DNA from: a virus
Taxonomy: Duplodnaviria; Heunggongvirae; Uroviricota; Caudoviricetes
IMG/VR virus record: IMGVR_UViG_2531839640_000007
Strand: one strand, 5' to 3'
Length of the DNA stretch: 43,851 nt
Positions 35,962 through 39,459 of this stretch are shown in pieces. Both the position numbers and the translations under genes were made by a program. The number at the start of each line of letters is the position of its first letter. Positions within the stretch are counted from its first letter, which is position 1. The notes beneath the pieces were generated by a model. The model saw only the letters and a program-made list of their open reading frames with translations. It made no database searches and was not told the origin of the DNA.

Positions 35962-38900
35962 ATGGGTAAAGGCAGCAGTAAGGGGCATACCCCGCGCGAA
36001 GCGAAAGATAACCTGAAGTCCACGCAGCTGCTGAGTGTGATCGATGCCATCAGCGAAGGGCCGGTTGAAGGTCCGGTGGATGGATTAAAAAGCGTGCTGC
36101 TGAACAGTACGCCGGTGCTGGACAGTGAGGGGAATACCAATATATCCGGCGTCACGGTGGTGTTCCGGGCCGGTGAGCAGGAGCAGACACCGCCGGAGGG
36201 ATTTGAATCCTCCGGCTCCGAGACGGTGCTCGGTACAGAAGTGAAATATGACACGCCGATCACCCGGACCATCACGTCGGCAAACATTGACCGTCTGCGT
36301 TTTACTTTCGGCGTGCAGGCACTGGTGGAAACCACCTCAAAGGGGGACAGGAATCCATCGGAAGTCCGCCTGCTGGTTCAGATACAACGTAACGGTGGCT
36401 GGGTGACGGAAAAAGACATCACCATTAAGGGTAAAACCACTTCACAGTATCTGGCCTCGGTGGTGGTGGATAACCTGCCGCCGCGCCCGTTTAATATCCG
36501 GATGCGCAGGATGACGCCGGACAGCACCACAGACCAGCTGCAGAACAAAACGCTCTGGTCGTCATACACCGAAATTATCGATGTGAAACAGTGCTACCCG
36601 AACACGGCACTGGTCGGCGTGCAGGTGGACTCGGAGCAGTTCGGCAGCCAGCAGGTGAGCCGTAATTATCATCTGCGCGGGCGTATTCTGCAGGTGCCGT
36701 CGAATTATAACCCGCAGACGCGGCAATACAGCGGTATCTGGGACGGAACGTTTAAACCGGCATACAGCAACAACCCGGCCTGGTGTCTGTGGGATATGCT
36801 GACCCATCCGCGCTACGGCATGGGGAAACGTCTTGGTGCGGTGGATGTGGATAAATGGGCGCTGTATCTTATCGGCCAGTACTGCGACCAGTCAGTGCCG
36901 GACGGCTTTGGCGGCACGGAGCCGCGCATCACCTGTAATGCCTGGCTGACCACACAGCGTAAGGCGTGGGATGTGCTCAGTGATTTCTGCTCTGCGATGC
37001 GCTGTATGCCGGTATGGAACGGGCAGACGCTGACGTTCGTGCAGGACCGACCGTCGGATAAGGTGTGGACCTATAACCGCAGTAATGTGGTGATGCCGGA
37101 TGATGGTGCGCCGTTCCGCTACAGCTTCAGCGCCCTGAAGGACCGCCATAATGCCGTTGAGGTGAACTGGATTGACCCGAATAACGGCTGGGAGACGGCG
37201 ACAGAGCTTGTGGAGGACACGCAGGCCATTGCCCGTTACGGTCGTAACGTCACGAAGATGGATGCTTTTGGCTGTACCAGCCGGGGGCAGGCACACCGCG
37301 CCGGGCTGTGGCTGATTAAAACAGAACTGCTGGAAACGCAGACCGTGGACTTCAGCGTGGGTGCCGAAGGGCTTCGCCATGTACCGGGCGATGTCATTGA
37401 AATCTGCGATGATGACTATGCCGGTATCCGCACCGGCGGGCGCGTGCTGGCGGTGAACAGCCAGACCCGGACGCTGACGCTCGACCGTGAAATCACGCTG
37501 CCATCCTCCGGTACCACGCTGATAAGCCTGGTTGACGGAAGTGGTAATCCGGTCAGCGTGGAGGTTCAGTCCGTCACCGACGGCGTGAAGGTGAAAGTGA
37601 GCCGTGTTCCTGACGGCGTTGCTGAATACAGCGTATGGGGGCTGAAGCTGCCGACGTTGCGCCAGCGCCTGTTCCGCTGCGTGAGTATCCGTGAGAACGA
37701 CGACGGCACGTATGCCATCACCGCCGTGCAGCATGTACCGGAAAAAGAGGCCATCGTGGATAACGGGGCGCACTTTGACGGCGACCAGAGCGGCACGGTA
37801 AATGGTGTCACGCCGCCAGCGGTGCAGCACCTGACCGCAGAAGTCACCGCAGACAGCGGGGAATACCAGGTGCTGGCGCGCTGGGACACGCCGAAGGTGG
37901 TGAAGGGCGTGAGCTTCCTGCTTCGCCTGACCGTGGCAGCGGATGACGGCCGTGAGCGGCTGGTCAGCACGGCCCGGACGACGGAAACCACTTACCGCTT
38001 CACACAACTGGCTCTGGGGAACTACAGGCTGACAGTCCGGGCAGTAAATGCGTGGGGGCAGCAGGGCGATCCGGCGTCGGTATCGTTCCGGATTGCCGCA
38101 CCGGCAGCGCCGTCGCGGATTGAGCTGACGCCGGGCTATTTTCAGATAACCGCCACGCCGCATCTTGCGGTTTATGACCCGACGGTACAGTTTGAGTTCT
38201 GGTTCTCGGAAAAACGGATTGCGGATATCAGGCAGGTTGAAACCAGCGCGCGTTATCTTGGTACGGCACTGTACTGGATAGCCGCCAGTATCAATATCAA
38301 ACCGGGCCATGATTATTATTTTTACGTTCGCAGTGTGAACACCGTTGGCAAATCGGCATTCGTGGAGGCTGTCGGTCAGCCGAGTGATGATGCATCAGGC
38401 TATCTGGATTTTTTCAAAGGCGAGATAGGGAAAACCCATCTGGCTCAGGAGCTGTGGACGCAGATTGATAACGGTCAGCTTGCGCCTGACCTGACTGAAA
38501 TCAGGACGTCCATAACGGATGTCAGCAATGAAATAACACAGACCGTCAATAAGAAACTGGAAGACCAGAGTGCAGCGATCCAGCAGATACAGAAGGTTCA
38601 GGTTGATACAAATAATAACCTGAACAGCATGTGGGCAGTGAAGCTGCAGCAGATGCAGGACGGACGCCTTTATATTGCGGGTATCGGTGCCGGTATTGAG
38701 AACACCCCTGACGGCATGCAGAGTCAGGTGCTGCTGGCAGCAGACAGGATTGCGATGATTAATCCTGCGAATGGCAACACAAAGCCGATGTTTGTTGGTC
38801 AGGGCGATCAGATATTCATGAATGAAGTGTTCCTGAAACGCCTGACGGCCCCCACCATTACCAGCGGCGGTAATCCTCCGGCATTTTCCCTGACATCAGA

Positions 38901-39459
38901 CGGGAGACTGACGGCGAAAAATGCGGATATCAGTGGCAGTGTGAATGCGAACTCAGGAACGCTCAACAATGTCACGATTAACCAGAACTGTACGATTAAG
39001 GGCATGCTGGAGGCGACCCAGGTCAGAGGAGATTTCGTTAAAGCTGTATCAAAAGCCTTCCCGAAAAAAGTCGGTACGTGGGGTAACACGGAAACACCAA
39101 ACGGTACGGTTACAGTCACCATCAGCGATGATCATAACTTTGACCGCCAGATTATTATTCCGCCCATTATTTTTAACGGTATAGCGTATGACGATCCGGG
39201 GAGCGGAAATAACCCAGGAGGCACGCGATACACGGGTTATGGTTTTGAAGTTCGCAAAAACGGCGTATTAATCGCATCCAGAGAAACTAAAGGGGCCATT
39301 CCCGGTAGTTACAGTGCAGTTATTGATATGCCGAGTGGCAGGGGAAGCGTCACTCTGGAGTTTAAGATTTTCCAGAAAGGCAATCAGGGGGCAGGCAATA
39401 TCACCGACTGTACGGTGATTGTGACCAAAAAAGCCGCTTCCGGCATCAGTATTCGTTGA
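35962..39459 (+). CDS. J: Central tail fibre / host specificity protein J, 1165 aa, with C-terminal receptor-binding region divergent from lambda
   Basis: N-terminal about 1000 aa lambda J-like; C-terminus ends ...[14 protein letters not shown] rather than the lambda ending as recalled. Confidence 0.93.

Follow-up and report, generated by a model that had tools for sequence, protein, structure and literature searches.

An h434-type receptor-binding domain in the J protein of a lambdoid prophage: predicted OmpC specificity and a linked Lc/NmpC-type porin module

Here we present an analysis of the tail-tip gene J and of a prophage porin module in the window, by which we mean the whole 43,851-nt stretch of DNA that was analyzed (IMG/VR record IMGVR_UViG_2531839640_000007). 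The window matches a non-Stx prophage of E. coli O104:H4. Gene J, which encodes the central tail fibre or tip attachment protein, occupies 35962..39459 on the plus strand as an intact ORF of 1165 aa, and both peptides quoted in the earlier note are present in its product. Both the ORF order in the window and RefSeq, where the identical gene is named gpJ (WP_000515639.1), place it 3' of H-M-L-K-I and 5' of lom and stf. Pfam matches run along the protein in the order FNIII-A_GpJ, Phage-tail_3, Ig_J, Ig_J_second, Phage_Tail_Tip and Ig_GpJ_C, and the NCBIfam model lambda_TipJ is matched over positions 1-1163 of 1163 with 2335 bits (cutoff 1950). J has the full-length gpJ/TipJ architecture, from N-terminal tip domains to a C-terminal receptor-binding Ig domain. 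Two antisense ORFs within or overlapping J (38808-39122 and 39268-39567, minus strand) were without support and were taken as spurious. Beyond J, a scan found a terminator-like element on the plus strand at 39482..39505, consisting of a GC-rich hairpin and a T6 run (GGCGTCAGGAATGACGCC TTTTTT), and the record of phage 434 annotates a terminator at the equivalent position. It is followed by the usual neighbour of J, the Ail/Lom outer-membrane protein gene lom (39530..40129, plus strand; Pfam Ail_Lom, E = 1e-122).

J is a three-part mosaic with mapped domain boundaries. The earlier note, made from the sequence of this DNA before any alignment, had described most of J as lambda-like, and this is borne out for the lambda/434-like tail-tip body, aa 1-806 (35962..38379, plus strand), in which 787/806 residues (97.6%) are identical to lambda J and every 150-nt bin shows 93-98% nucleotide identity to lambda (NC_001416). 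The fibre shaft that follows contains a second mosaic patch, aa 807-950 (38380..38811, plus strand), which carries a 28-aa insertion relative to both lambda and 434. Identity to lambda J is 47% over aa 807-900, where the insertion lies, and 76% over aa 901-1010; over aa 810-950 the protein shows only 43-60% identity to lambda and 434. Its identity there to ev017, a phage with a different receptor-binding domain, reaches 97-98%. This shaft patch (nt about 38380-38811) is absent from the earlier note. The conserved straight-fibre segment at aa 951-1010 (38812..38991, plus strand) is common to all J types, with 87-93% identity to lambda, 434, phi330, 4C10, ev017 and 2G7b, and the equivalent of lambda F924, in a QIFMN motif, is kept.

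The last segment, aa 1011-1165 (38992..39456, plus strand), has the sequence of a phage 434 (h434)-type receptor-binding domain and is a predicted OmpC binder. Alignment with lambda J gives 40-41% identity and 17 gap columns over these residues, with three indels separating the two C-terminal domains, so the claim that the J C-terminus departs from lambda is upheld, and the 155 divergent residues measured agree with the roughly 150 proposed. The start of the divergence, placed by the earlier note at 38800, had to be moved. Nucleotide identity to lambda is still 91% in the bin at 38812-38961 and collapses to 54-58% from 38962 on, which puts the breakpoint near nt 38990, about 190 nt further downstream. 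The domain is not of the LamB-binding lambda type, which corresponds to about aa 980-1132 of lambda J. Its fold family is nevertheless the same: Pfam Ig_GpJ_C covers aa 1029-1164 (E = 4e-25), and matches to solved lambda J chains in the PDB reach E = 1e-58. A search of the PDB for a structure of the 434-type domain returned none. Lambda J (LamB-binding; PDB 8IYK, 8XCJ) thus shares with the window J its family, domain order and Ig_GpJ_C fold family, and differs from it in the loop lengths of the receptor-binding domain and in receptor, LamB for lambda and, by prediction, OmpC here.

Against phage 434 J, 150/155 residues of the domain (97%) are identical. The 434 protein (OL657226; also in lambda h434 imm21, OM418627) is like the window J in domain length, in indels relative to lambda and in position before lom, and differs from it in lacking the shaft patch of ev017 type (aa 807-950, with its 28 additional residues) and in five substitutions within the domain, N1047(D), R1127(G), I1136(V), Q1138(H) and G1143(R), with the 434 residue in parentheses. 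A fully identical domain occurs in sequenced phages, several of them viable; these include mEp332, PhiR34_1, PhiR42_1, PhiR68_2, Kati, ev243 and phiSTEC1575-Stx2k, of which mEp332 and PhiR34_1 are deposited as propagated on K-12. When the last 156 aa were searched by tblastn against 50,697 phage records, 74 records matched at 90% identity or more and 169 at less than 60%, lambda itself standing at 37%. This bimodal split identifies a discrete allele class, so that the divergence is not noise, and the window J belongs by its C-terminal sequence to the 434 class and not to the lambda class. Furthermore, the 434-type domain is present in 2112 of 5426 complete E. coli genomes (39%). The tail-tip domain is therefore a very common, already described h434 variant and is nothing new in itself.

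OmpC is the receptor of phage 434 and also of lambda once it carries J from 434 (PMC3509688, PMC11101478). The sequenced hybrid lambda h434 imm21 has a J of lambda origin as far as aa 681 and of 434 origin from aa 752 onward, a parentage that assigns the h434 host-range determinant to the C-terminal third of J. By homology to 434 and the lambda-h434 hybrids, the exact variant in the window is likely to recognise OmpC and not LamB. The earlier note had proposed a receptor other than LamB, probably OmpC, and the 150/155 match to J of 434, an allele characterised by experiment, supports that proposal. One could still argue that J uses LamB despite its divergent C-terminus, given that the fold family is that of lambda and that LamB, OmpC and OmpF are all trimeric porins. 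With only 40% identity to the lambda domain and three indels, however, and with the near-identical 434 allele serving as a classical genetic marker of non-LamB host range, we regard continued use of LamB as very improbable.

The five residues that separate the domain from 434 count against an exact assignment to OmpC, and they could have shifted specificity to certain OmpC alleles only, or to OmpF or an NmpC/Lc-type porin. There is precedent for such shifts. In the related J protein of phi21, one substitution can add a receptor, with single changes adding the use of OmpC or OmpF (PMC11336670), and the 1A2 gpJ variant of Brodel et al., which has a 2G7b-type J domain, mediates delivery to EDL933-type OmpC and hardly to MG1655 OmpC. 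No 434-type construct was found among those of Brodel et al., and the literature searched contained no receptor experiments on phages with the identical domain (mEp332, the PhiR series). The domain is, however, 97% identical to that of 434, and no data point to a receptor other than OmpC. Phages whose records give K-12 MG1655 as the propagation host carry the exact variant, and it is in this strain background that 434 uses OmpC. A shift in specificity seems unlikely to us, if less so than retention of LamB.

The second feature of interest is a prophage porin on the minus strand at 15669..16751 (Pfam Porin_1, E = 3.5e-152), an orthologue of PA-2 Lc and DLP12 NmpC. The ORF is intact, with 360 aa, and lies between Q (15082-15480) and the lysis genes, RefSeq placing the lysis gene essD just past it. 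The protein is 92% identical to PA-2 Lc and 61% identical to K-12 OmpC, and its alignment with K-12 OmpC shows gaps that correspond to long stretches missing from the prophage porin; it is distinct from the chromosomal OmpC. Upstream, the regulatory region (16752..17339, minus strand) matches its PA-2 lc counterpart at 97% identity. Two CRP sites are annotated in PA-2 (J02580); they correspond here to about 17155-17175 and 16860-16880, coordinates derived by hand from the alignment, and the sequence of both is unchanged. The 3' flank (minus strand, approximate limits 15481..15668) is a homologue of the ipeX small-RNA region, matching the regions 3' of K-12 DLP12 nmpC and of PA-2 lc at about 97%. 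It is predicted to fold into three hairpins and a terminator hairpin (-67.5 kcal/mol, z = -8.7). The homologue was found through the DLP12/PA-2 alignment because Rfam has no ipeX family; at gathering thresholds over the whole window, the sole Rfam match was IS009 at 43610-43808.

In its position in the Q-lysis interval, its opposite strand and its lc regulatory region, the porin is placed as the PA-2 lc moron (J02580) and in a layout equivalent to that of DLP12 nmpC-ipeX. The K-12 nmpC gene is interrupted by IS5, while the copy in the window is intact; wild-type 434, unlike the window, has no porin moron. Lysogens of PA-2 are reported to exclude phages by means of lowered OmpC. The comparison with PA-2 drawn in the earlier note proves apt at the sequence level for the porin module, in porin, upstream region and 3' flank alike. 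According to a review, OmpC production is under the control of ipeX (PMC12197685). It is plausible, from the sequence of the porin and its flanks, that the porin module of the window would lower OmpC in the manner of PA-2.

Taken together, we consider it quite probable that the 3' end of J encodes an h434-type domain that docks on OmpC rather than LamB, and that the linked porin and ipeX-like region may lower OmpC. Ordinary lambdoid recombination would have joined the 434-type domain to a lambda-like J body. The J trimer carrying this domain would then dock on the trimeric porin OmpC instead of LamB, and docking would lead to tail opening and DNA ejection. In the lysogen, the Lc/NmpC-type porin and the ipeX-like 3' RNA may in turn lower OmpC, and OmpC-dependent phages may then adsorb less well, an effect of the kind reported for PA-2 and DLP12.

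The condition of the prophage bears on how much of this scheme could operate today. The large terminase subunit gene, the lambda A homologue (21171..23095, plus strand), has lost one nucleotide from a G run at about 22411 and is split as a result. Lambda has GGGGG where the window has GGGG, the 221-nt stretch being otherwise identical, and the GpA_nuclease domain lies partly in each of the two ORFs (21171-22436 and 22403-23095). RefSeq flags the large terminase gene of the O104:H4 genome as 'frameshifted', and at least 12 O104:H4 assemblies, with 100% identity along 24.1 kb, carry the same frameshift. On the identical locus RefSeq also lists further pseudogenes in the early region. Additionally, the side tail fibre gene stf (40188..43267, plus strand; Pfam phage_tail_N, Phage_fiber_2 and Collar) is broken by a 1-nt deletion near 42815-42830, with a reading-frame switch ahead of ...NYIVRLA; the stretch concerned measures 251 nt in the window and 252 nt in O104:H4 genomes, whose 3075-nt CDS is intact. 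From these sequences the prophage is probably defective and looks unable to package DNA. With the large terminase frameshifted, a defect absent from the earlier note, the plaque assays of induced phage proposed there would probably fail, and J could matter only after rescue or recombination.

J might accordingly be read as a relic, its divergence recording past recombination and having no present role in infection or exclusion. The terminase frameshift, shared by the window and the assemblies, the early-region pseudogenes and the broken stf all favour that reading, and we give it serious weight, though short of an even chance. J, however, is intact at 1165 aa, as are all other tail genes, and a defective lambdoid prophage can still yield its tail module through recombination or complementation; 434B gained a DLP12 segment in this way. 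Moreover, a relic is compatible with the receptor assignment of the J allele.

The modular exchange seen in J has parallels. J proteins of the A8 (PDB 9WCA)/phi330 and 1A2/2G7b types likewise exchange about 150 C-terminal residues while the rest of J stays conserved, and they also occur in porin-carrying lambdoid phages; their domains are only 42-45% identical to that of the window and thus represent separate allele classes. The A8, phi330 and 1A2 types are OmpC-dependent by experiment (PMC11338833, PMC12502783). Among the phage records, 36 carry the porin, and wild-type 434, PhiR42_1, cdtI, mEp460 and many domain-carrying Stx phages are not among them; most of the 74 records with the 434-type domain are without porin. 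We typed J in 26 natural porin-carrying genomes, leaving the 434B porin out of the tally as that of a laboratory DLP12 recombinant, and found 12 of the 434 type, 5 of the A8/phi330 type, 1 of the 1A2/2G7b type and 8 of the 4C10 subtype, with the lambda-type domain in none (0/26).

The porin was rejected as a predictor of the 434-type domain, which only 12/26 carriers have and which mostly occurs in phages without porin; porin-linked exclusion is not tightly coupled to this domain. A broader association, in which the Lc/NmpC porin and ipeX moron travels preferentially with OmpC-targeting J alleles about 20 kb away, is a tentative suggestion that we think rather doubtful. The 26/26 co-occurrence also speaks for the main reading, but it is weak evidence because OmpC binding appears to be common to most of the natural J domain types anyway. 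The association is weakened in that most lambda-like J proteins have an OmpC-type domain to begin with, that stx genes compete for the Q-S locus and that the sampled genomes are not independent. If it is true, the moron would confer immunity by depleting the very receptor that the tail tip of its phage uses, which would generalise the single PA-2 case. Uc-Mass and colleagues reportedly described in 2004 a cor-mediated exclusion at FhuA in FhuA-dependent lambdoid phages. That system shares the concept of a prophage moron disabling the receptor of its own tail tip, but its receptor is FhuA and its gene is unrelated to the porin of the window.

These findings bear on annotation, in that J should be described not as 'lambda J' but as a tail tip of the h434 type directed at OmpC, and the porin labelled 'ompC' by RefSeq as a prophage porin of the Lc/NmpC type. 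On a wider view, natural lambda-like J proteins are specific for LamB only in exceptional cases. The J domain types matter for host-range prediction and for the engineering of lambda-derived delivery particles, and they help to guess from which resident prophages recombination could draw host-range modules. Finally, if the porin-ipeX module lowers OmpC in E. coli O104:H4, it could alter both phage susceptibility and outer-membrane permeability.

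The J tail-tip gene occupies 35962-39459 on the plus strand as a 1165-codon ORF homologous to lambda J. The ORF carries the complete Pfam J domain set, whose last member, Ig_GpJ_C (aa 1029-1164), is the C-terminal receptor-binding domain, and it scores 2335 bits against the NCBIfam model lambda_TipJ. According to the ORF list and RefSeq annotation, the tape-measure, M, L, K and I genes lie upstream and lom and stf downstream. Both peptides cited in the earlier note were found in this ORF. The J protein belongs to the lambda J family and carries the known h434 allele class.

Alignment with lambda J (NC_001416) gave 97.6% identity over aa 1-806, 47% with a 28-residue insertion over aa 807-900, 76% over aa 901-1010 and 41% with 17 gap columns over aa 1011-1165. 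Nucleotide identity falls from 91% at 38812-38961 to 54-58% from 38962 onward, which, together with the segment identities, argues that the last ~155 residues are truly non-lambda, with a breakpoint near nt 38990. The earlier note was thus right that roughly the last 150 residues depart from lambda, and its start of 38800 was placed too far upstream. The C-terminus also fell outside the lambda (LamB) domain class. A second mosaic patch, overlooked in that note, lies in the shaft (aa 807-950, including the 28-aa insertion; 38380-38811, plus strand) and is 97-98% identical to phage ev017, as against 43-60% to lambda and 434. The C-terminal domain of ev017 is unlike that of the window J. The shaft patch assorts independently of the receptor-binding domain. 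J is thus a mosaic of three parts: the body resembles lambda and 434, the shaft patch resembles ev017, and the C-terminal module makes up the third.

That C-terminal module is, as judged by alignment, the phage 434 allele: 150 of its 155 residues (aa 1011-1165) are identical to 434 J (OL657226), the substitutions, window residue first, being N1047/D, R1127/G, I1136/V, Q1138/H and G1143/R. The 657-nt stretch singled out in the earlier note is 100% identical in Kati, ev243, mEp332, PhiR34_1, PhiR42_1, PhiR68_2 and phiSTEC1575-Stx2k, and 96% identical in 434 and lambda h434 imm21. When phage records were searched by tblastn with the last 156 aa, the identities were bimodal, with 74 records at 90% or above, among them cdtI, mEp460 and numerous Stx1 and Stx2c phages, and 169 records below 60%, lambda J itself standing at 37%. 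The 434-type sequence was present in 2112 of 5426 complete E. coli genomes. A search of the PDB found lambda J and the other-type "A8 gpJ", and no solved structure of the 434-type domain. The domain is nothing new: the gene already has an annotation, named phages carry identical copies of it, and the receptor class was recognised as early as the 1970s.

Phage 434 uses OmpC as its receptor, and placing the 434 J gene in lambda replaces LamB binding with OmpC binding (PMC3509688, PMC11101478). Mapping of parentage in lambda h434 imm21 J placed the 11 informative sites as far as aa 681 with lambda, without exception, and every site from aa 752 on with 434; this switch confines the classical h434 host-range allele to the C-terminal third of J, where the 434-lambda differences lie mainly in the domain common to the window and 434. 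By homology to this allele, OmpC is the likely receptor of the window J and LamB an unlikely one. A literature search for a receptor experiment on this exact J variant found none. Single substitutions can add receptors to J proteins (PMC11336670), and OmpC-binding variants can be specific for particular OmpC alleles (PMC11338833). The window J also keeps the QIFMN motif, in which F952 (about 38815-38817) corresponds to F924 of lambda J. The phenylalanine of this motif is reported to trigger HepS, an abortive-infection nuclease of Gifsy-1 (PMC13043305), and the window J is accordingly predicted to trigger HepS as well.

The stretch 15400-39500 of the window (24,101 nt) has a 100% identical counterpart in at least a dozen complete E. 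coli O104:H4 genomes, where it belongs to the lambda-like, non-Stx prophage of the lineage. The prophage's large terminase subunit gene, the lambda A homologue (21171-23095, plus strand), is frameshifted, with the nuclease domain divided between ORFs 21171-22436 and 22403-23095. The break is a 1-nt deletion, one G lost from a GGGGG run at about 22411, in flanks otherwise identical to lambda A; RefSeq O104:H4 annotation likewise flags a frameshift in this gene and records further early-region pseudogenes. With this lesion the prophage can probably not package its DNA, and plaques from induced phage are therefore unlikely. The side tail fibre gene stf (40188-43267, plus strand) is also broken, a 1-nt deletion switching frame near 42815-42830 and leaving the His-rich C-terminal ~150 residues (...NYIVRLA end) out of frame. 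Since the closest O104:H4 genomes have one base more and an intact 3075-nt CDS, the deletion would be either particular to the window sequence or a sequencing error. An Rfam IS009 match (43610-43808, plus strand; 227 bits, gathering score 117) lies inside the tail-fibre assembly gene region.

Work by Schnaitman in the 1970s reportedly showed that PA-2 uses OmpC, that its lysogens produce Lc and less OmpC, and that PA-2 adsorbs poorly to them. The prophage porin on which the earlier note drew proved real: an intact Lc/NmpC-type minus-strand gene at 15669-16751 (Porin_1 E = 3.5e-152). As in DLP12, it is placed between Q (15082-15480) and the lysis genes. Its protein is 92% identical to PA-2 Lc and only 61% identical to K-12 OmpC, of which long stretches are absent, so the RefSeq label "ompC" is misleading. 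Unlike K-12 nmpC, it carries no IS5 interruption. The 820-nt region upstream shares 97% identity with PA-2, and this match takes in the two CRP sites that J02580 annotates. The 3' flank (about 15481-15668, minus strand) is about 97% identical to the DLP12 nmpC / PA-2 lc 3' region that encodes the small RNA ipeX and folds much better than shuffled controls (z = -8.7); no Rfam family covers it. According to reviews, ipeX, cut from the porin transcript, governs OmpC production (PMC12197685, PMC10690425). Every sequence-level feature of the PA-2/DLP12 porin-ipeX moron was found here, and with the Lc-like porin, conserved upstream region and ipeX-like flank, the module that a PA-2-like strategy would require is present and intact.

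This porin was found in 36 phage records, reduced to 26 natural phages by leaving out RefSeq duplicates, "star" variants, the partial PA-2 record and 434B (OL657227), the last because its porin is a laboratory DLP12 substitution (PMC9119081). No other "434" record than 434B carries a porin, and the nmpC segment of 434B is IS5-interrupted. The J C-terminus was 434-type in 12 of the 26, of the 4C10 subtype (81% identical to phi330) in eight, A8/phi330-type in five and 2G7b-type in one; none of the 26 was lambda-type. OmpC dependence is established for phi330 by knockout and complementation (PMC12502783) and for engineered A8 and 1A2 gpJ chimeras (PMC11338833). A8 is of the phi330 type (PDB 9WCA), and 1A2, translated from the supplement of PMC11338833, is of the 2G7b type despite machine-reading errors. 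By this typing, the J domain of each porin carrier is either an OmpC binder or a close likeness of one. In two carriers, the phages PhiR63_2 and D2, J is apparently frameshifted or split inside the receptor-binding domain; these breaks could be genuine or could stem from sequencing errors.

The co-occurrence fits the earlier suggestion of an OmpC-type tip paired with a matching exclusion strategy, as weak evidence, because OmpC-binder-like types already make up about three quarters of J-bearing records (an estimate from an evenly spaced listing), stx genes take the same Q-S locus in the heavily sampled Stx phages, the carrier genomes are related to each other and so are not independent samples, and the porin is absent from PhiR42_1, cdtI, mEp460 and wild-type 434 (OL657226), the archetypal OmpC-using lambdoid phage, as well as from the majority of the remaining phages with a 434-type domain. 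We hold only tentatively, and as rather improbable, that lambdoid phages in general may pair the porin-ipeX moron systematically with an OmpC-directed tail tip.
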